Positions 2,731-58,566 of a stretch of DNA of 64,000 bases are shown piece by piece. Source of the stretch: a bacterium BMS3Abin08 (lineage in GTDB: Bacteria; Nitrospirota; Thermodesulfovibrionia; Thermodesulfovibrionales; JdFR-85); assembly GCA_002897935.1 (NCBI GenBank), contig BDTA01000058.1, positions 5,486-69,485 of the forward strand, written 5' to 3'. The translations under genes and the position numbers were made by a program. Position 1 is the stretch's first letter. Every line of letters begins with the position of its first letter. Under the pieces are notes generated by a model. It saw only the letters and a program-made list of their open reading frames with translations. It had not been told where the DNA came from and made no database searches.

Positions 2731-3245
2731 GTCATGCCCCGAAAACTCTCGGGGTATCATTTCAGGGATGACAATTGTGACACCGTTTGTTCACGGGAAT
2801 AACGGTTATACAAGGTTTACAGTCTTTAATTACCGAACTAATAATTGCAATTATTATAACTAATTTCCGCCTTAAAACAAAAGATCCCGTAATACTTCAC
2901 ACTTTATTAAATTTGACTCTTTCGTGTTTTAGTTGAAGACAGGCTTAAAATTCAACTTAACATTAACCACAACGCACAATGTCATTCCCCGAAAGCGTTC
3001 GGGGAATCGTTCTTTAAGAAGGATTCCCGAGACCCGAATGCGTTCGGGATTGCGGGAATGACTAATAAACGTCAAGCTCTCCGACCAAAGGTCGGGGCTT
3101 TCGGCAAGGTGCATTGTAAACACGGGTAGAAAAGAGCAGCATGATTGAAGCTGAAGGGTTTTGAATTTTGCATCAGATTCACCGGGAAGGTGAATTGCAA
3201 AATTCCCTCGGAAGCGGGCGGAATGCCCGCTGAGAATGACTGAAG
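2731..3245. repeat. cluster of interspersed hairpin-module repeats (several families)
   Basis: 2731-2772 reads gtcatgccccgaaaactctcggggtatcatttcagggatgac. 2915-3062 is about 90 percent similar to 19026-19190. 3071-3120 (gtcaagctctccgaccaaaggtcggggctttcggcaaggtgcattgtaaa) recurs at 25926, 26271, 28976 (reverse complement), 52265 and 57101. Confidence 0.7.
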
Positions 3246-7369: not shown

Positions 7370-7715
7370 TACGGTGTCACCTCTGAAATAAATTCAGGAC
7401 AGACTCTGACATTATGCGCCCCGAAACCTCCCGGGGTAGTGTTTCAGGGAGTATCCGTACCGACCTCAATCCTACTAAGCAAAGTTTATGCCATACTACT
7501 ATTATTTTTTTAACACCCTTTATTGTAAACACTCTTTTATTTTGAACATAATCTAAACGGGCTGTTGCCCAAACCATAAATTGTTACTCCTGAAAAAAAT
7601 CAGGGTAGGCCCTGAACCCTGTGCCCCGAAGGCTCTCGGGGTATTGTTTCATGGTCTCTCAGCTCATTAGTTTTTATTAGATTTCCCGAACTTAATTCGG
7701 GATTCAGAATGACGG
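7370..7715. repeat. hairpin-module repeats (ccccgaa..cggggta and cctgaa..ttcagg modules; attcgggattcagaatgac module)
   Basis: 7418-7450 and 7620-7652 are copies of the 2735-2768 module. 7681-7712 (tttcccgaacttaattcgggattcagaatgac) matches 32711-32741 and the reverse complement of 52524-52552. Confidence 0.6.
7478..7493 (-). promoter_or_regulatory. sigma-54 (-24/-12) promoter for the OsmC/DsrE-like/TauE operon
   Basis: The reverse complement reads TGGCATAAACTTTGCT. GG and GC have exactly the consensus spacing of TGGCAC-N5-TTGCW. It lies about 175 nt upstream of the OsmC ATG (7302). Confidence 0.6.
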
Positions 7716-7921
7716 CAGGGACATTTTCCTGTTTGGGCAACAGACTGTAAAGTAAAAACAGGAGCGCATTGAGGCATCTTTTTCCAACTGATTACTCATT
7801 ATTTGGTGTGTTATTACACCATTACAATGATACTTAGGTGCTGATTTGCACCAACCTATAACCGGCGTTCCGGTTTCTACCGGCAAACTTTCCCTATTAA
7901 TTCAGGAACAATTAACCACAA

Positions 7922-9230: not shown

Positions 9231-9275
9231 ATACATAACCTATTGAACAAAGGGGAGGTTTCTAAGTTATATATT

Positions 9276-19025: not shown

Positions 19026-19300
19026 GGCTCTTTCGTGTTTAGTTGAGGACAGGCTTGAAATTCAACTTAACATTAAGCACAACGCACGCAGAGGGCAGAG
19101 TTGTCGTTTTTCCGTCATTCCGTCATTCCGGCTTGTCCGGAATCGTTCTTTAAGAAGGATTCCCGACATGCTTCGCTTGCGGGAATGACAAATGACTATA
19201 ATTTATACACGGACCATAATTAGACAAAGCAATCCAACATTTAGTAATTTATACGAGAATATCGCAGAAACGATTCCGGACAAGCCGGAATGACAGGACA
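19026..19300. repeat. repeat cluster: copy of the 2915-2985 module plus an inverted, one-ended family-A MITE and an isolated ccggacaagccgg hairpin
   Basis: 19097-19222 is the reverse complement of the left 125 bp of 23004-23130. It ends in tttatacacggaccataattag. 19271-19293 reads gattccggacaagccggaatgac. Confidence 0.7.
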
Positions 19301-23003: not shown

Positions 23004-23180
23004 TTAGTGTCTGTGTATAAATTACAGTCATTTGTCATTCCCGCAAGCGAAGCATGTCGGGAATCCTTCTTAAAGAACGATTCCGGACAAGCCGGAATGA
23101 CGGAAAAACGACAACTGAAAACTCCGGATTTCTGCTTAAGGACTGCTGGAATGACAGATATGGAATTTGAGTTTATACAC
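23004..23180. mobile_element. chimeric MITE-like element (left half family-A type 1, right half type 2)
   Basis: Left end ttagtgtctgtgtataaattacagtc and right end gagtttatacac. The interior combines the cccgcaagcgaagcatgtcggg and ccggacaagccgg hairpins with ctgcttaaggactgctggaatgac. Confidence 0.6.
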
Positions 23181-23274
23181 TACAGCGTCATACCTGAAAT
23201 GAATTCAGGGCAGGCTCCGGCCCACACTCGATGTGGGGATAGAACAACACCAGTACAGGCTCATGGTCTCCTGT

Positions 23275-24303: not shown

Positions 24304-24319
24304 AAAAACCTCCTTACTA

Positions 24320-24391
24320 AACACAGATGATCACTGATACAAGCGCAGATGACCGCAGATACTGTGCTAATCTGTATTTTTTCTATCTGTG
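24320..24391. repeat. heptamer array, left flank of the GxxExxY cassette (CRCAGAT x3, then ATCTGTG-type x2)
   Basis: CACAGAT 24322, CGCAGAT 24344, CGCAGAT 24354, ATCTGT 24370, ATCTGTG 24385; all read directly. Confidence 0.8.
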
Positions 24392-24808
24392 TTATTTATC
24401 AGTGTAAATAAGCCTTTTTACCCCAAGTTTACTTGTTCCAAAATTAGCCAGCAATACAAGTTTATACTTTGTGCCTTTCACATAATAATAGACTTGGTCT
24501 CTCATAGCTTTTGTAATAGCCGGTGCCACTTTAACTTCTAATATAACTTTTTCATCTATAATGAAATCAGGTCTGTATACCCCCACTTTCTTTCCCTTGT
24601 ATTTAACATCTATGGTTTTTTCTTCTACAAAAGGAATTCCTTTTTCAATTAATTCTATAGTAATTGCCTTATGATAAATAATTTCTTTATGTACACTACC
24701 CAATTCTTTATGAATTTCATAAAGAACCCCTATGATTTTGTAGGTTAAATCTTTATAAATATATTCTGTTTCTTTATATGTGCCCATCTGTGTCTTTTCT
24801 GCGATCAT
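24392..24808 (-). CDS. GxxExxY-family protein (PD-(D/E)XK nuclease-fold superfamily)
   Basis: 138 aa (131 aa if the start is M8 at 24787). Contains IIGVLYEIHKELGSVHKEIIYHKAITIEL and RPDFIIDEKVILEVKV. Visibly AT-rich compared with its neighbours. Confidence 0.7.
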   Translation of the reverse strand: MIAEKTQMGTYKETEYIYKDLTYKIIGVLYEIHKELGSVHKEIIYHKAITIELIEKGIPFVEEKTIDVKYKGKKVGVYRPDFIIDEKVILEVKVAPAITKAMRDQVYYYVKGTKYKLVLLANFGTSKLGVKRLIYTDK

Positions 24809-24862
24809 TTGCGTTTCTCATCTGCGATCATCTGTGCTTTTCTCCATCTGTGCCAATCTGTG
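24785..24862. repeat. heptamer array, right flank of the GxxExxY cassette (ATCTGYG x5)
   Basis: catctgtg 24785, catctgcg 24819, catctgtg 24829, catctgtg 24845, aatctgtg 24855. The array overlaps the last 16 codons of the radical SAM gene. Confidence 0.8.
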
Positions 24863-25912
24863 TTTCTTAGGCATATAGCCGCAGAAAGGCTCCTCATCCA
24901 GGAAGTCTCCGGTAACTGCATACGCCCTTGCCCGACAGCCGCCACAGACATTTATGTACTCACAGGAGCCGCAGCGTCCCTTGTAACTCTTGAAGTCACG
25001 GAGTTCCCTGAAGAGCTCCGAGTTCTCCCATATGTCCTTGAAGGGCTGCTCAAAGACGTTCCCCGCCGACTTTGGAAAGTAACTGCAGGGAAGCACATCC
25101 CCGTCAACATCAATAAGACATATCAACTGTCCGGCAATACAACCCTTTGCACCACCTGTGGAGAACTTAAGAGATCTCCTCTCAAACGCCTCACCCTCAT
25201 GCCTCGATTGCTGAAGCACTATTCTGTAGTAGTGAGGGGCGCAGGTAGGTCTTACAAGCATCTCCTTTTCGAGTTTTTCCATCTGATAGTGCCACTCGAG
25301 GATCTCCTCATAATCCTCCTTTGAGATAAGTTCGTTCATAATCTCCTCACCCCTGCCTGTAGGAACAATCATGAACATATACCATGCAGTGGCGCCAAGT
25401 TCCTTTGCCAGACGGTAGACCCGCGGGATCTCCTCCTGGTTCCTCTTCGTAAAGGAAGAATTTATAATAAACTCTATCCCATGTTTTCTGAAGAGCCCGG
25501 CAGCCCTGATGGTACCCTCAAAGGCACCCCTCTGCTTACGGAAGTCATCATGAACATCTGCGGTTGATCCGTCAAGGCTCAAGGAGACTATCTTTATGCC
25601 CGATTCCTTTATCCTCTCACATCTTTCGTCATCAACAAGCAGACCGTTCGTCGCCATACACATCCTGAGCCCCTTATCAGTGCCGTATCCGGCAATATCA
25701 AAGACGTCTTTTCTCATCAACGGCTCTCCACCTGAAAGCACAACTACAGGCTTTGCGTAACTTGCAATGTCATCAATGACCCGGTATGCATCCTCTGTCG
25801 GAAAATCAGGGTGCCCCTTCACCACGGCCTCGGATGCAGATCGGCAGTGAACGCACCTGAGGTTACATCTTCTTGTAATTTCCCATGCTATCCACTTAGG
25901 TCTGAATTCCAT
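24818..25912 (-). CDS. radical SAM/SPASM protein, AhbD/NirJ-like (haem-biosynthesis type)
   Basis: 364 aa. Contains [16 protein letters not shown] (CxxxCxxC) and the C-terminal SPASM cysteines CSYFP...[18 protein letters not shown]. Confidence 0.7.
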
Positions 25913-25925
25913 GTCTTACTCCTGC

Positions 25926-26065
25926 GTCAAGCTCTCCGGCCGAAGGCCGGAGCTTGCCGATGGCATGCCTTACAGCATAGCAATGTAAGGTTTTGATATT
26001 TTATCTTTATATTTGCCTCCGGCACTTCGGTGCTTTCGGCAAAGAACATTGTAAGGAAATTTGAT
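25926..26065 (+). repeat. 140-bp repeat 'C-long' (left copy of an inverted pair)
   Basis: gtcaagctctccggccgaaggccggagcttgcc...cattgtaaggaaatttgat. The reverse complement of 29040-29179 is about 93 percent identical by eye. Confidence 0.8.
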
Positions 26066-26270
26066 TAATTAGAGTCCGTGTATAAACTCGAACAGTTGCC
26101 GTTACTCCGTCATTCCCCGAAAGCATTCGGGAAATTATTCAAAGCGCAAAGCGCATAGCATTAGTTTTTCTGTCATTCCGGCTTGTCCGGAATCTGTCTT
26201 TAAGAAGGATTCCCGACGCGCTTCACTTGCGGGAATGACAAATAACCGTAGTTTACACAGACTCTGCTTA
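26066..26270. mobile_element. family-A MITE-like element inserted into the C repeat
   Basis: Ends TAATTAGAGTCCGTGTATAAAC and GTTTACACAGACTCTGCTTA. The interior carries cccgaaagcattcggg, ccggcttgtccgg and cccgacgcgcttcacttgcggg hairpins. Confidence 0.7.
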
Positions 26271-26328
26271 CATTCCTTGCCTTCATCCCCGACCAAAGAT
26301 CGGGGCTTTCGGTAAGGTGCATTGTAAA
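26271..26328 (+). repeat. repeat 'C-short'
   Basis: cattccttgccttcatccccgaccaaagatcggggctttcggtaaggtgcattgtaaa. Copies at 3071-3120 (partial), 28976-29033 (reverse complement) and 57456-57511. Confidence 0.8.
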
Positions 26329-26577
26329 TTTTAAAACCTCAAATACTCCGGCACATTGAGCAAATACCGGTTGTTTTGCCTGAACTAAGCGATTCTTCAG
26401 AAAAAATGAGAGGATTGCGGAATTAGCGGTTATGTCACCCCTGCCCTCCTCCATCAAGGTGGAGAGGGAATTTTTGAGAAGTCCCCATCCCCTAATGGGA
26501 GAGCATTGGGGAGAGGTGTTCAAAATCATTTAATTCAGGTTTTATCAAAACTCAGTGTCTCTGTGGTTCGGTCTTTA

Positions 26578-28221
26578 TTATACAACCATTCCGGCCGGTT
26601 TTTCACTCCAGAGCCTCTCTTCTATAGCGCTCAGCAGTGGTGGAAAGGTATTCCTGTCAAGCGCGGAGATGGATACAGCACTGTAAAGCACGGCTATATG
26701 CCCTGCCTCCTCGGGCGGCAGTTTGTCTATCTTGTTAAATACAAGGAGCCTTTCCTTGTCGGAGAGGCCAAGCTCCCTAAGGGTCCGCTCAACCGATTGA
26801 ATATGCAGTTCAAACCCTGGATTGGATGCATCCACCAGTTGAATTAAAAGATCTGCATCATCAAGTTCTTCAAGGGTTGATTTAAAGGCGGACATCAGGT
26901 CTTTCGGCAGGTCCCTGATGAAACCAACCGTGTCTGTTATGATAATCTCCCTCTCCCTCGGGAAACGGAGCCTTCTGCTTGCAGTATCAAGGGTAGCAAA
27001 CATCCTCTTCTCCGTAAAGGTACCGCTTTCCGTGAGGTTGTTAAGCAGGGTGGACTTGCCCGCATTGGTGTATCCTACAATAGAAACAATGGGTATCCCC
27101 CTCTGCACCCTTCTTCTTTTTCTCTGATACCTTGCCTTGGAGAGTTTCTTCAACTCCCGTTCAAGGAGGTGGATCCTGTCACGGACACGCCTTCTGTCTA
27201 TCTCCAGCTTCATCTCACCAGGCCCCCTGCCACCTATTCCACCTGTAAGACGGCTCATTGCCGTTCCCTTTCCCGTGAGCCTCGGGAGCCTGTATTTCAA
27301 CTGTGCCAGCTCAACCTGAACCTTACCATCCCCTGTATGTGCCCTCTTTGCAAATATATCCAGTATCAGTTGTGTCCTGTCTATAACCTTAAGTTCCGTC
27401 AGTTCGGCTATCGCCTTCATCTGTGATGGTGTAAGGTTCTGGTTAAAAATCAGGAGGGTTGCGCCCTTTGAAAGGGCCTCTATTATCAGTTCCCTGAGCC
27501 TTCCCATCCCCATCAGCAGCCTGGGATTCACCACCTTAATTCTCTGAACAACACTACCGAGAACCACCACATCAGCGGACCCGGCAAGCTCGTTCAGCTC
27601 TGCAATTGATTCCTCCTGTTCATGCCTGGGTTTGTTTGAAACACTAATCAGGATCGCCCTCTCCCTCTTGTCATCGGGAGAGATATACCTTAAACGGTCC
27701 ATCTCCTCCTCGACTGATCTGATAAAGGCCTGAAAGTCGAGATGGAAACTGTATACCCTGGCCGGCTCCATTATCTCGTAAGGTCTCTCACTGCTCTCGG
27801 GAAGGAGATAAGCCGCATAAACAGTGTGCGGTAAAGAATCCTTAATCCCCACGGCTATGATGATATCGAACCTCAACAGGGCAAGGTCTGTCATATCATC
27901 AAGATTCAGGGGCTCATTGGAAAGATGGGTATGGATCAGTCTCAGCCCCCTCAATGCCTTTTTGCCGAGGGGAAAGGCCGACAGATCAGGGATAAAGATC
28001 CCCCTGGAGTCACCGATTATTACATGGGTAACCACGCCGGCACGGTTCACAAGGATTGCCACTTGACGGTTAATATGGAGAGACAAATCAGATATGAATC
28101 TTACAATCTCCTGGGTAAAGACTTTTTCAGGCGGGATACGGCGTCTGTATAGCCTTTCGAGGGTTTTGATATCCTGTTTTTTAAGACCTGCTGTATTTCC
28201 AAAAACTGAAGCGATTTCCAT
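26578..28221 (-). CDS. hflX: GTPase HflX (long form)
   Basis: 547 aa. Contains GGIGGRGPGE, the G1 motif GYTNAGKSTLLN, DTVGF, and NKID. Confidence 0.9.
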   Translation of the reverse strand: MEIASVFGNTAGLKKQDIKTLERLYRRRIPPEKVFTQEIVRFISDLSLHINRQVAILVNRAGVVTHVIIGDSRGIFIPDLSAFPLGKKALRGLRLIHTHLSNEPLNLDDMTDLALLRFDIIIAVGIKDSLPHTVYAAYLLPESSERPYEIMEPARVYSFHLDFQAFIRSVEEEMDRLRYISPDDKRERAILISVSNKPRHEQEESIAELNELAGSADVVVLGSVVQRIKVVNPRLLMGMGRLRELIIEALSKGATLLIFNQNLTPSQMKAIAELTELKVIDRTQLILDIFAKRAHTGDGKVQVELAQLKYRLPRLTGKGTAMSRLTGGIGGRGPGEMKLEIDRRRVRDRIHLLERELKKLSKARYQRKRRRVQRGIPIVSIVGYTNAGKSTLLNNLTESGTFTEKRMFATLDTASRRLRFPREREIIITDTVGFIRDLPKDLMSAFKSTLEELDDADLLIQLVDASNPGFELHIQSVERTLRELGLSDKERLLVFNKIDKLPPEEAGHIAVLYSAVSISALDRNTFPPLLSAIEERLWSEKPAGMVV

Positions 28222-28371
28222 TTCCTCCTATATTTATATCTCCTATATTTATATTCTATCACAATACGGAAGATATTTCAGCACATTTATGAAAAAACAC
28301 GGGAGAGCCTCAGATTCGGGAGAATGGAGGGGAGGAACTTGATTCGGGATTCAGGATGACAAAAACGACCG

Positions 28372-28505
28372 TAATTAGAGTCTGTGTATAAACTGTGTTG
28401 TTGTCATTCCCGTGAAAACGGGAATCCAGTAAAATCAAGCGGTTCTGGATTCCGCATCAAGTGCGGAATGACGGAATAGATGAGTTTATACACAGACACT
28501 AATTA
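28372..28505. mobile_element. family-A MITE-like element, copy 1 of a tandem triple
   Basis: TAATTAGAGTCTGTGTATAAACT ... AGTTTATACACAGACACTAATTA. Internal hairpins are cccgtgaaaacggg and ccgcatcaagtgcgg. Confidence 0.75.
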
Positions 28506-28653
28506 GAGTCTGTGTATAAACTGCCGTTTTTTATTTCTGTCATGTCCCGAACGCTTTCGGGATATCCAGAACTTATTGAAAAGACTGGATTCCGGCTTAA
28601 TGACTGCCGGAATGACAGATAGAAGAATTGAGTTTATACACAGTCTCTACTTA
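28500..28653. mobile_element. family-A MITE-like element, copy 2 (shares the TAATTA junction with copy 1)
   Basis: TAATTAGAGTCTGTGTATAAACT ... GAGTTTATACACAGTCTCTACTTA. Internal hairpins are cccgaacgctttcggg and ccggcttaatgactgccgg. Confidence 0.75.
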
Positions 28654-28798
28654 GTGTCTGTGTAAATTACAGTCACTTGTCATTCCCGCAATCCCGAACG
28701 CATTCGGGAGTCGGGAATCCTTCTCAAAGAACGATTCCGGACAAGCCGGAATGACAGAATAACGACAACTGTTCGACTTTATACACAGACTCTAATTA
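28648..28798. mobile_element. family-A MITE-like element, copy 3
   Basis: TACTTAGTGTCTGTGTAAATTAC ... GACTTTATACACAGACTCTAATTA. The interior matches 45899-46039 and 23004-23110. Confidence 0.75.
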
Positions 28799-28927
28799 GT
28801 TCCTGTTGCTGAAGTTTTAATTGTCACCCTGAATTTATTTCAGGGTCTCGCAACTCTTGTTATTATTAGATTCTGAAACAAATTCAGAATGACAGTTTTT
28901 GGATTTTCGTTTTTCCGCAACAGGAAC
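28799..28927. repeat. 129-bp element with 11-bp perfect terminal inverted repeat gttcctgttgc / gcaacaggaac
   Basis: Termini read directly. The interior contains the gtcaccctgaatttatttcagggtctc and attcagaatgac modules shared with family B. Confidence 0.65.
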
Positions 28928-28975
28928 TATTTAAGGGAAAACAATGCAGGTAAGAGGCTATCTCTTGAGCGGAGA

Positions 28976-29179
28976 TTACAATTGAACCTTGCCGAAAGCC
29001 CGACCTTTGGTCCGGGGATGAAGGCAAGGAATGTAATTAATAAATTTTCCTTACAATGTTCTTTGCCGAAAGCACCGAAGTGCTGGAGGCAAATATAAAG
29101 ATAAAACATCAAAACCTTACATTGCTAAGCTGTAAGGTATGCCATTGGCAAGCTCCGGCCTTTGGTCGGAGAGCTTGAC
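28976..29179 (-). repeat. uninterrupted C-short + TAATTA + C-long repeat (reverse orientation); the empty-site allele
   Basis: The reverse complement reads ...cattgtaaggaaaatttatTAATTAcattccttgccttcatcc..., so the two C halves are contiguous with a single TAATTA at 29034-29039. Confidence 0.8.
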
Positions 29180-32628: not shown

Positions 32629-32782
32629 CAAAATTGATGCACTCGTAAAAAGTCCTGATTGTCACCCTGAACTTGTTTCAGGGTCTCATAACTTCTTGAT
32701 TTATATAGCTTTCCCGAAGTTAATTCGGGATTCAGAATGACAGAATAGGGTATTTCTGATTTTTTACGAGACTGTCAAAATT
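32629..32782. mobile_element. family-B MITE-like element inside the qmoB-qmoC spacer
   Basis: CAAAATT-gatgcactcgtaaaaag ... ttttttacgagactgt-CAAAATT. Near-identical (in reverse orientation, apart from a roughly 50-bp insertion) to 52482-52684. Confidence 0.7.
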
Positions 32783-45877: not shown

Positions 45878-45898
45878 ATTTTAAAATACCGCCTATTG

Positions 45899-46039
45899 TT
45901 AGAGTCCGTGCATAAATAACAGTCATTTGTCATTCCCGCAAGCGAAGCGAGTCGGGAATCCTTCTTAAAGACAGATTCCGGACAAGCCGGAATGACAAAA
46001 TAACGACAACTGTTCGACTTTATACACAGACTCTAATTA
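45899..46039. mobile_element. family-A MITE-like element
   Basis: ttagagtccgtgcataaataacagtc ... gactttatacacagactctaatta. The interior is near-identical to 28648-28798. Confidence 0.75.
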
Positions 46040-52197: not shown

Positions 52198-52481
52198 GAC
52201 AAAGTTACACGTCAGGGATTTTGCGTTATTTGCGTTACCGGATAACCTGCTAAGAATACCATAGAGTGAAGCTCCCCGGCCAAAGACCGGGGCATTCAGT
52301 CGGCATCCTCGTAAAAAGACATCCAGTGTCTGTTTATCTCATTGCGGGCTCGACCCGGAATCAGGTCTTGTCGCTCCGGGTCCCCGCTCCCGGATCAAAA
52401 TCGTCGCGAGGCATAGCAATAATGACGAATGGGATCTGCAACAACGAACAAGCAGACTTAACTTGTGAATTTATCAGTAGT

Positions 52482-52684
52482 CAAAATTGATACACTCGTA
52501 ATAAATCAGAAATACCCTATTCTGTCATTCTGAATCCCGAATTAACTTCGGGAAATCTATATAAATCAAGAAGTTATGAGACCCTGAAACAATACTGAAT
52601 CAAGTTCAGCACATGGTTCAGAGCCTGCCCTGAATTTATTTCAGGGGTGACAATCAGGACTTTTTACGAGTGCATCAAAATTGA
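52482..52684. mobile_element. family-B MITE-like element (long variant)
   Basis: CAAAATT-gatacactcgtaataaa ... ctttttacgagtgcat-CAAAATT. It is the reverse complement of the qmoB-qmoC copy plus an extra cctgaa..ttcagg module of about 50 bp. Confidence 0.7.
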
Positions 52685-52687
52685 TAT

Positions 52688-52827
52688 TCCGGTAAAAAGT
52701 CGTCATTCCCGAGAAAGCGGGAACCCGGAAAGCGTGTAACTATTTGAAATAACTGGATTCCCGTTTCCACGGGAATGACAAAAAACACTTTTTCAGATTT
52801 TTCCGACTTTTTATGAGAATATCAAAA
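52688..52827. mobile_element. family-B-related element abutting the previous one and the pheS stop codon
   Basis: Starts right after the shared CAAAATT (gatattccggtaaaaagtcg) and ends cgactttttatgagaatat-CAAAACT. The interior has cccgagaaagcggg and cccgtttccacggg hairpins. Confidence 0.55.
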
Positions 52828-57100: not shown

Positions 57101-57152
57101 GTCAAGCTCTCCGGCCAAAGGTCGGGGCTTGACAATGTAAGGAAAATTTGAT
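57101..57152 (+). repeat. truncated C-long repeat
   Basis: gtcaagctctccggccaaaggtcggggcttgac|aatgtaaggaaaatttgat. The internal roughly 90 bp of the 25926 copy are absent. Confidence 0.7.
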
Positions 57153-57306
57153 TAAATAGAGTCTGTGTATAAAGTCAACAATAGAGCCGTCATTCCCGCG
57201 GTCTGTTGGGCGGGAATCCAGTCTTTTCAGTAACTTCCGGATACCCGACTACAAACTTCGGGCATGACAAAAATAAAAAATGGCAGTTTGTACACAGACT
57301 CTAATT
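57153..57306. mobile_element. family-A MITE-like element (tandem pair, copy 1)
   Basis: TAAATAGAGTCTGTGTATAAAG ... GTTTGTACACAGACTCTAATTA. Hairpins are cccgcggtctgttgggcggg and cccgactacaaacttcggg. Confidence 0.75.
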
Positions 57307-57455
57307 AGAGACTGAGTATAAAGTCAGTCCCTCTGTCTGTCATTCCGGCAGTCCTTAAGCCGGAATCCAGTCTTTTCAATAAGTTCCGGATATCCCGAAA
57401 GCGTTCGGGGCATGACAAAAATAAAAAATGGCAATTTATACACAGACTCTAATTA
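57301..57455. mobile_element. family-A MITE-like element (tandem pair, copy 2; shares the TAATTA junction)
   Basis: TAATTAGAGACTGAGTATAAAG ... ATTTATACACAGACTCTAATTA. It is the reverse complement of the 28500-28653 type. Confidence 0.75.
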
Positions 57456-57511
57456 CATTCCTTGCCTTCATCCCGACCAGAGATCGGGGCTTTCGGCAAG
57501 GTGCATTGTAA
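57456..57511 (+). repeat. C-short repeat
   Basis: cattccttgccttcatcccgaccagagatcggggctttcggcaaggtgcattgtaa. Confidence 0.8.
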
Positions 57512-57774: not shown

Positions 57775-57897
57775 TAATTCGAGTCTGTGTATAAATTGCC
57801 ATTTTTTATTTTTGTCATACCCGAAGTCTGAAGTCGGGTATCCGGAACTTATTGAAAAGACTGGATTCCGGCTTAAGGACTGCCGGAATGACAGATA
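57775..57897. mobile_element. family-A MITE-like element, right end truncated
   Basis: TAATTCGAGTCTGTGTATAAATTGCC ... ccggcttaaggactgccggaatgacagatagg. No right terminal repeat. Confidence 0.6.
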
Positions 57898-58172
57898 GGA
57901 AACCGCACTGGACGACATTAATCGGGAAGAACTCCATGGATATGATAATTTGGAGGACATCACCGGCGGCGGGGAGTCGTGGCTAACCGTCCCCGGAAAC
58001 AATGGACGTATCCGGACTTTAGAATCTGGATGAGAATGAAAACTCCCCGCTGCAGAGACGGCGGAGTATCGTTAGGTAGAGTTTATTAGATTTAAAAATC
58101 CCCCCTCGCCCCCCTTTGCTAAAGGGGATTATAGGGCTGAGTAGTTACGAAAATTGTATCTTTATTTTCGGT

Positions 58173-58398
58173 GTCATTCCGGCTTGTCCGGAATCCTTCT
58201 ACATTGTTTGGGACCACAAGAAAGATTCCGGACAAGCCGGAATGACGGAAAAACGACTACTGCTCGACTTTATATAGTCGTTTGTCATTCCCGCAAGCGA
58301 AGCACGTCGGGAATCCTTCTACATTGTTCGGGACCACAAGAAAGATTCCGGACAAGCCGGAATGACGGAAAAACGACTACTGCTCGACTTTATACACA
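58173..58398 (+). repeat. about 120-bp tandem duplication (2 units) of a family-A-derived sequence
   Basis: 58189-58276 and 58309-58396 differ at 2 of 88 positions. The first unit carries a ccggcttgtccgg hairpin where the second carries cccgcaagcgaagcacgtcggg. Confidence 0.85.
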
Positions 58399-58566
58399 GG
58401 TAACTACTCAGGTCTCCCCATTTGAAAGGGGGGGTTATAAGGAAACCCCACAGCAGAGACCTATGGCGATGCAAGCTATGATTATGCCGACTCCATCCGT
58501 TAGAAACCGGATGAGAATAAAATCACACCTGTCATAATCTGCAGTATTAATGATATAATTTTCACC

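Follow-up and report, generated by a model that had tools for sequence, protein, structure and literature searches.

Evidence for two non-autonomous mobile element families, each nested in the other, in the Nitrospirota metagenome bin BMS3Abin08

The 64,000-nucleotide stretch of DNA analysed here, referred to below as the window, comes from contig BDTA01000058.1 (positions 5,486 to 69,485) of the Nitrospirota metagenome bin BMS3Abin08 (GCA_002897935.1), and sulfate-reduction genes are present in it. It contains many copies of a short element with inverted ends, together with a bipartite repeat, here called the C repeat, in whose central TAATTA some of these elements lie. We conclude, with a probability of roughly 80%, that these are two unrelated families of non-autonomous mobile elements, reciprocally nested in a genome of the Thermodesulfovibrionales type. 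The first family has the features of miniature inverted-repeat transposable elements (MITEs) of the terminal inverted repeat (TIR) type: small size, no coding capacity, many copies, TIRs, a target-site duplication (TSD) of fixed length, and both filled and empty sites. The nesting runs in both directions: C elements hold MITEs in their TAATTA, and one MITE holds a C unit directly after its TTAC.

An earlier note on this DNA had described the C repeat at three places, as paralogous copies of a host repeat whose junction is contiguous in one copy, holds one MITE in another and two in the third. All three bipartite loci are present where it placed them, we add a fourth copy of one unit, and reading the junctions bears out the three states. 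Copy B (28976-29179, plus strand) consists of TTAC (28976-28979) and a 200-nt three-hairpin element, its junction reads tat-TAATTA-cattcc, and the hexamer (29034-29039) is unoccupied. Copy A lies on the minus strand and its junction reads gat-TAATTA-[193-nt MITE]-TGCTTA-cattcc. The part adjoining the MITE (25926-26065, hairpin units U2 and U1) is 94% identical to copy B and is the right-end side when the element is read from TTAC, the left-end hairpin unit U3 occupies 26271-26323, and the target GTAA (26324-26327, TTAC on the minus strand) is kept and unduplicated. MITE A itself (26072-26264, plus strand, 193 nt) has the TIRs GAGTCCGTGTATAAA and TTTACACAGACTC; it is flanked on the left by the TSD TAATTA (26066-26071) and on the right by TGCTTA (26265-26270), a degenerate copy matching at four of six bases that is also found in the strain variants L002 and L004. 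Copy C, also on the minus strand, is a short two-hairpin form with its right-end side at 57101-57152 and its left-end hairpin unit, with the target GTAA (57508-57511), at 57456-57511. Its junction reads gat-TAAATA-[143]-TAATTA-[142]-TAATTA-cattcc and holds two MITEs on the plus strand, C1 (57159-57301, 143 nt) and C2 (57308-57449, 142 nt), the latter 92% identical to MITE T2 (described below) in the opposite orientation. TAAATA (57153-57158) is a target copy with one mismatch, the first TAATTA (57302-57307) is common to the tandem MITEs and the second (57450-57455) lies to the right of C2.

Nucleotide alignment of the three loci shows that their flanks are homologous over the junction. With its MITE and one hexamer removed, copy A matches the reverse strand of copy B at 203 of 216 positions (94%), unbroken over the junction, and copy C without both MITEs matches B at 122 of 133 positions (92%) and A at 88%. 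The A-B alignment is bounded by GTCAAGC and ATTGTAA, and the flanks outside these bounds are unrelated. Copy C is also shorter by 89 nt in its left half, where two A[AT]TGTAAGG direct repeats bound the internal deletion. The junction 19-mer CATTCCTTGCCTTCATCCC occurs exactly three times in comparison with 0.05 expected. A scan of a genome collection with a 19-mer of the C right half returned one relevant contig (L009), the other 20 matches being due to chance, and this contig contains a second empty short C copy, which reads gatttATTAcattcc. Alignments of the raw loci with MAFFT, and automatic alignments of the T1-T3 array, were unreliable owing to large nested indels, and anchored and manual comparison was used instead.

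The window contains at least 12 full or partial MITE copies. The elements are 121-193 bp long across the family and 122-193 nt in the seven intact copies of the window (A, T1-T3, E, C1 and C2). T1 (28378-28499), T2 (28506-28647) and T3 (28654-28792) form the tandem array TAATTA-T1-TAATTA-T2-TACTTA-T3-TAATTA (28372-28798). All copies have in common the 15-bp ends GAGTCTGTGTATAAA and TTTATACACAGACTC, which pair in predicted folds, and the TIR 15-mer with up to three mismatches is found 23 times in the window in comparison with 1.4 expected. The interiors consist of GC-rich hairpin modules of the GTCATTCC...GGAATGAC type, combined differently from copy to copy. The MITEs fold more stably than shuffled sequence (z of -4.2 to -7.5). 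They contain no open reading frame (ORF) and give no Rfam or Pfam signal; the Rfam scan of the whole window found one tRNA and no other family.

TAATTA occurs 22 times in the window, about half of these occurrences flanking MITEs. Since this hexamer is palindromic, the window by itself leaves undecided whether it is a TSD or part of the TIR, and we therefore scanned metagenome contigs for intact TIR pairs with the flanks left unconstrained. The family is present in at least 120 contigs from about 50 datasets, and its named hosts are Nitrospirota or Thermodesulfovibrionales. The matches listed yielded 87 canonical, non-redundant intact copies, after about eight loci of a different family were excluded, and the counts given next are all among the matches listed. 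The two flanking hexamers are identical in 47 of the 87 copies, differ by one mismatch in 22 and by two in 12. When the pairings are permuted, 12 pairs on average and at most 21 are identical, and no copy has identical control hexamers one step further out. Of the copies with a non-palindromic left hexamer, 37 repeat it directly on the right and 2 repeat it as the reverse complement. Perfect duplications are most often of TAAATA (17), TATTTA (16) and TAATTA (11), others are of TAACTA, TACTTA, TAGTTA, TAAGTA, TATATA, TACATA and TTATTA, and a Y before the hexamer and an R after it are weakly preferred (Y-TAWWTA-R). The direct repetition of non-palindromic hexamers excludes an extension of the TIR, and TAATTA, which the earlier note had named as the target or duplicated site, is one instance of a genuine 6-bp TSD with the consensus TA-W-W-TA.

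Other target models do not fit these hexamers. Symmetric cuts of 0, 2 or 4 bp, a 3-bp TTA duplication and a TIR extension are ruled out by the non-palindromic cases; the 3-bp model also needs asymmetric element ends and leaves matching 6-mers such as TACATA/TACATA unexplained. A MITE derived from IS630 or Tc1-mariner would duplicate the TA dinucleotide, and here the whole hexamer is duplicated, including its variable central dinucleotide. The 2-4 bp duplications (TNA, TWA or CTAG) of MITEs of the IS5 (IS1031/ISL2) or PIF-Harbinger type are likewise not what is found.

The duplication also accounts for the tandem arrays. In the window and all related loci, 20 pairs have a right end and the next left end no more than 30 nt apart; in all 20 the gap is exactly 6 nt, and the abutting MITEs share this one hexamer, which is always TANNTA. 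This spacing is expected if a MITE inserts into the duplicated target of a resident copy, which explains both T1-T2-T3 and C1-C2. Each insertion recreates the target on both sides, later ones land there, and head-to-tail arrays result; the TAATTA spacer of the C repeat is such a target, empty in B, filled once in A and twice in C. The MITEs would be mobilised in trans by a cut-and-paste transposase, probably of the DDE type, making a 6-bp staggered cut, a class of enzyme suggested by the TIRs and the fixed length of the duplication.

An account that dispenses with transposition would have the hairpin modules shuffled by recombination, as in clusters of repetitive extragenic palindromic (REP) sequences and bacterial interspersed mosaic elements (BIME), with TAATTA a mere linker. 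The intergenic DNA is indeed full of modular hairpin repeats and the MITE interiors are mosaic. One-unit C forms look like recombinants of left and right hairpins, and MITE F (23007-23188, plus strand), a chimeric or truncated copy whose left TIR follows TAGTTA and whose right TIR is cut short, can be read as a chimera of two MITEs. A linker, however, would not predict the directly matching non-palindromic hexamers, the spacing of exactly one hexamer in every array, or the precise presence and absence of elements at orthologous single hexamers in unrelated contexts that is described below. The TSD statistics contradict shuffling as the sole process, and we consider it very improbable.

Orthologous sites were compared in relatives about 95-96.5% identical to the window, namely GCA_006240875.1 (loci L046, L170, L173 and L175), Logan SRR6439362 (L171 and L176) and Ga0114931 (L042 and L172). 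The solitary MITE E (45902-46033, plus strand; 45899-46039 with its flanks) is missing from L175 and L176, where the sequence cctattgat-TAATTA-cagaagg contains a single hexamer and the site reads cctattgatTAATTAcagaagg. In the window, MITE E keeps a complete right TSD copy (TAATTA, 46034-46039), and a loss of 5 nt has reduced the left one to TTA. Gains are also seen on the side of the relatives: the single TACATA at 9232-9237 of the window corresponds to TAAATA-[MITE]-TACATA in L170, and the single TATTTA at 28928-28933 to TATTTA-[MITE]-TATTCA in L046. The orthologous region of L046 lacks the T1-T3 array. Locus C exists in three states, L175 having a 45-nt C unit with no MITE, L042 one MITE and the window two. 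The MITE of L042 at this locus has left modules like those of C2 and right modules like those of C1; a simple unequal crossing-over between C1 and C2 gives the wrong order of modules for this arrangement and was rejected as its source. These orthologous pairs, with the paralogous ones above, confirm the claim of the earlier note that the elements are, or were, mobile.

The empty copies, B and L009, might instead be formerly filled copies from which the MITE was lost, either by precise excision or by recombination between the 6-bp repeats. Recombination between TSD copies would leave a single clean hexamer, and small junction deletions do occur (5 nt at E, 17 nt at L042). Cut-and-paste excision, on the other hand, normally leaves footprints, and there are none at B or L009; 6 bp of homology is very short for recurrent precise deletion; the filled copies differ in the subfamily and number of their MITEs; and orthologous gains are found on both sides, in the window and in its relatives. 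Loss is accordingly judged improbable, and the insertion of MITEs into an empty TAATTA is preferred.

The C repeat is itself an inserted element. The ortholog of locus A in L046 reads ctcctgc-GTAA-gttttaaaacc, where the window has ctcctgc-[GTCAAGC...CATT]-GTAA-attttaaaacc; the empty site is ctcctgcGTAAgttttaaaacc, and the whole of 25926-26323 is missing from it. On the other strand this 398-nt block, comprising the C repeat and its MITE, lies exactly 3' of TTAC with no gain or loss of bases, and the empty site still has its TTAC. The C repeat really ends at ...CATT, and the GTAA that follows is the target. All 18 real C copies in the window and the fetched loci lie directly after TTAC, with unrelated flanks on both sides and no duplication. 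The element follows TTAC, reads AATGCACC...CTTGAC, and has unrelated sequence beyond. Half of these copies (9 of 18) have a 45-nt one-hairpin form, AATGCACCTTGCCGAAAGCCCCGACCTTTGGTCGGAGAGCTTGAC. The fourth copy in the window (3071-3119, minus strand, including GTAA) is a 45-nt element of one unit. A 45-nt unit is found inside a MITE in L107, directly after a TTAC that uninterrupted copies carry there, and a variant C unit in L170 occupies a position that has no insertion in the window. The part of the earlier note's description that treated these copies as paralogous holds, and the part that took them for host sequence does not: the supposed host repeat is a second inserted mobile element.

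The long C forms are built of hairpin units, each starting after an internal TTAC, and their hairpins are more stable than those of shuffled sequence (z of about -3 to -5). The left and right hairpins are similar in the two- and three-hairpin forms, and the 45-nt form corresponds to the 5' half of the left hairpin joined to the 3' half of the right one. It looks like a recombinant between two similar inner stem-loops. The orthologs of locus B in L046 and of locus C in L175 have the 45-nt form, against the three- and two-hairpin forms of the window.

Because the C repeat is itself inserted, some filled copies may have spread as a composite of C and MITE, by transposition of C or by gene conversion, in which case the number of MITE insertions would be overstated. 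MITE A is 96% identical over 123 nt to the MITE (L042 1-139) at the same TAATTA of a C copy from a different locus (L042 1-205), against 91% to other copies of its subfamily. At copy A the C repeat and the MITE are both missing from the L046 ortholog, which fits either order of events there. Such spread is nevertheless rather unlikely, as the MITEs of loci A and C are of different subfamilies (identity at most 0.59), three lineages have 0, 1 or 2 MITEs at locus C, the subfamily of MITE A also occurs outside C repeats, and solitary MITEs have orthologous empty sites of their own. Independent insertion of MITEs into C elements is the favoured reading. A related observation concerns another target. 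At one TTAC the window (52266-52315) has a single diverged C-like unit, GTGAAGCTCC...CCTCGTAA; at the orthologous TTAC of L042 (1-205), a MITE and a TAATTA precede a canonical C right half. This points either to the replacement of one by the other or to separate occupations of one target.

The manner of insertion of the C element resembles that of IS608. IS608 inserts 3' of TTAC, keeps TTAC in its left flank and restores it on excision (PMC3201880, PMC5934647). At its left end the guide GL, AAAG, lies 5' of the hairpin foot with a spacing of 19 nt and the cleavage site CL is TTAC, and at its right end the cleavage site is TCAA, 10 nt 3' of the hairpin, with the guide GAAT (PMC3201880, PMC5934647). 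The C element likewise inserts exactly 3' of a retained TTAC without duplication. In place of inverted repeats, its two- and three-hairpin forms have similar hairpins near the left and right ends, and its 45-nt form has a single hybrid one; a possible counterpart of the guide GL is an AAAG directly 5' of the inner left stem, 18-19 nt from the TTAC junction. At the right end of C, CAAG and TGAC fit the guide code, yet they are largely explained by ordinary stem pairing. Unlike IS608, the C element is without tnpA or tnpB and its units are stackable in direct arrays after internal TTACs. No tnpA or tnpB was found between any pair of C left and right ends in the fetched DNA, and a tblastn search of the same DNA with an IS608 TnpA sequence returned nothing. 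From this likeness it is likely that the C element works in the manner of the IS200/IS605 family. No Y1 transposase turned up in the DNA searched, which leaves membership of that family itself unproven. C would move, or would have moved, by the single-strand 'peel and paste' route of this family, using a Y1 HUH TnpA encoded elsewhere.

REP, BIME and REPIN sequences are short extragenic hairpins with a GTAG head that occur in inverted pairs and are associated with RAYT transposases. The C element could be a REP-like element of this kind, spread by a RAYT (a domesticated Y1 transposase), and not a derivative of IS200/IS605. Its units are short, GC-rich extragenic hairpins (45 nt) with a conserved tetranucleotide, they are multi-copy and clustered, they are presumably handled by a Y1 HUH enzyme, and pairs of left and right ends enclose neither tnpA nor tnpB. 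They are nonetheless arranged in direct arrays and not in inverted pairs, they have no GTAG head, and the conserved TTAC is part of the target and not of the element, which distinguishes them from REP and BIME sequences. C also has a demonstrable target tetranucleotide and precise filled and empty sites, and its insertion is precise, free of a TSD and 3' of TTAC, as for IS608. A REP-type origin is thus unlikely, and we favour the comparison with IS200/IS605.

Several observations weigh against the interpretation as two nested families of mobile elements. The MITE interiors are mosaics of hairpin modules, which implies that recombination or gene conversion also reshapes these loci, and the TSDs are imperfect at A (TGCTTA) and at E (left copy reduced to TTA). 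For the C element, the right-end cleavage site (TGAC) is about 3-4 nt from the stem, and not a TCAA 10 nt away as in IS608; the commonest form has a single hairpin, while IS608 TnpA uses a hairpin at each end; and AAAG can pair into an extended stem in the 45-nt form. Strains of 99.8-100% identity (BMS3Bbin06, two TPA metagenome-assembled genomes and DRR093003/5) are collinear with the window over 14818-35912, and no insertion polymorphism or indel is found at any repeat over these 21 kb among strains of 99.8% identity. The check for insertion polymorphism proposed in the earlier note thus gave a positive result against the relatives of about 95-96.5% identity and a negative one among these strains. 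The elements moved or were lost within roughly 4-5% divergence, with no detectable change within 0.2%, and their activity is dated to the former scale. Finally, no autonomous copy or transposase of either family was found in the window, in 1.09 Mb of fetched DNA or in viral contigs, so that the catalytic class of both enzymes is inferred from their footprints only.

The searches for parent elements took several forms. Neither TIR pairs 400-4000 bp apart nor solo TIRs beside ORFs revealed an autonomous element in the fetched DNA. A de novo screen for elements of 600-3500 bp with inverted ends and a TANNTA duplication gave a single match that was not a MITE, in L060, without a transposase ORF. 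Clustering of multi-copy ORFs in 120 loci returned housekeeping genes only, scans of viral contigs gave chance matches within coding DNA or nothing, none of the small ORFs of the window scanned against Pfam is a transposase, and a literature search for the TIR string found no paper. One candidate was noted in L172 (Ga0114931_10018940, 7636-7748), where the TAATTA that is occupied by MITE E in the window (45896-45901) holds an element starting GAGTCTGTGTATAAACTGCTGTTT. It has the same TIR; its first 24 nt are followed by 83 nt that have no match in the other fetched DNA, and the contig breaks off inside it, 107 nt from its start (7642-7748). It may be one end of a longer element, possibly an autonomous one.

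Correia elements of Neisseria and Nezha of cyanobacteria are bacterial MITEs of the TIR type, and Correia and IS630-type elements duplicate TA. The MITEs of the window are similar to Correia and Nezha elements in being 100-200 bp long without an ORF, with perfect TIRs, many intergenic copies, strong fold-back, a target-site duplication, and filled and empty sites. They differ in having a 6-bp TA-W-W-TA duplication, not the TA of Correia elements, and a mosaic interior of hairpin modules; no parent insertion sequence (IS) was found for them. IS481 makes a 6-bp duplication of the palindromic NCTAGN, the ends of IS481 and IS3-type elements begin with TGT, and 6-bp duplications also occur in a few ISfinder groups (IS1634, ISDol1). 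Our MITEs, like IS481, duplicate a short palindromic hexamer of 6 bp, but this hexamer is TAWWTA and their ends begin with GAG or GTG, not TGT.

The remaining MITE copies of the window are incomplete. Truncated copies are found at 57781-57900 (plus strand; left TIR after TAATTC, right end missing) and at 19100-19216 (minus strand; left-truncated, with the right TIR followed by TAATTA, the feature extending to 19222), a truncated or chimeric one at 2981-3070, and 58157-58400 contains two tandem 120-nt copies (98% identical) of a MITE interior with partial ends and no complete TIRs. MITE A and T1 lie inverted around hflX with TAATTA at both outer ends (26066-28505; 2428 bp). The resemblance of this layout to a composite transposon is probably coincidental, because TAATTA is the commonest target. 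A strain-level contig has a different MITE sequence at the position of T2, near its end (L005 1-90), which is probably an assembly chimera between repeat copies and not real variation.

The loci excluded from the TSD set (L037, L060, L061, L074, L081, L093, L122 and L128) belong to a separate family with the longer inverted ends (T)CGTCTGATAATCC and GTCTGTGTATAAA. It has the 13-mer of the MITE ends in a subterminal position, an indication that the transposase-binding sites of these two different elements are related. A repeat beginning (aat)cgtctcaaaa(a)atagtgtagacatattattt lies at a TATTAA/TATTTA hexamer beside a MITE in the relative, recurs on a second contig (L046 8575-8730; L175 560-640) and may be a further family using the MITE target.

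Other intergenic repeat families in the window include hairpins of the form GTCACCCTGAA...TTCAGGGTGAC, hairpins of the form CCCGAA...TTCGGGATTCAGAATGAC, and a repeat of 50 nt located just before a truncated MITE in two places. The sites of these further repeats are 28812-28855 and 32650-32693; 7678-7713, 28325-28360 and 32706-32741; 2928-2977 and 19038-19087; and 52490-52790. One such family also occurs in the sister species BMS3Abin07 (L029 19622-19781), and the T1-T3 array lies inside one such further element, which is itself missing from L046. BMS3Abin07 shows 77% DNA identity in ahbD, its hflX-ahbD gap is 46 bp against 666 bp in the window, and 21 kb of its DNA yielded no MITE TIR. The slot between ahbD and hemE holds a PD-(D/E)XK_3 gene in the window (24314-24868), 152 nt only in the 95% relative (L046 5320-5471) and a GIY-YIG gene in BMS3Abin07 (L029 11080-11740), and opposed arrays of short RCAGAT/ATCTGYG repeats flank it in each lineage. 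The slot resembles a hot spot at which small mobile nuclease genes are inserted.

A broader proposal can be made, although we think it unlikely to hold in full. The MITE family is widespread in Nitrospirota of sediments and the subsurface, and more than 1 Mb of host DNA yielded no parent element; its transposase would belong to a lineage whose 6-bp stagger and preference for a palindromic hexamer match no described IS family, the 45-nt unit would be a minimal autonomous HUH substrate, and the two systems would feed each other targets, the TAATTA within the C element and the TTAC within the MITE, building nests of repeats. Nested non-autonomous transposons are already well known, and their documentation here is unusually good for an uncultured deep-sea Nitrospirota genome. 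Over the roughly 38 kb of compared regions, most large indels that separate the window from its relatives of about 95-96.5% identity are due to MITEs and C elements, the remainder involving other repeats or a small gene; the two kinds of element are therefore useful markers for strain tracking. Both repeats also break metagenome assemblies of this lineage, and several contigs, including some from the strains of 99.8-100% identity, end exactly at a MITE or C-repeat boundary. The ends, target, duplication and formation of arrays are defined for two mobile families in a lineage that is uncultured and genetically intractable; the strict 6-bp TAWWTA duplication offers a precise means of searching for the missing transposase, as the TTAC rule does for the missing TnpA.

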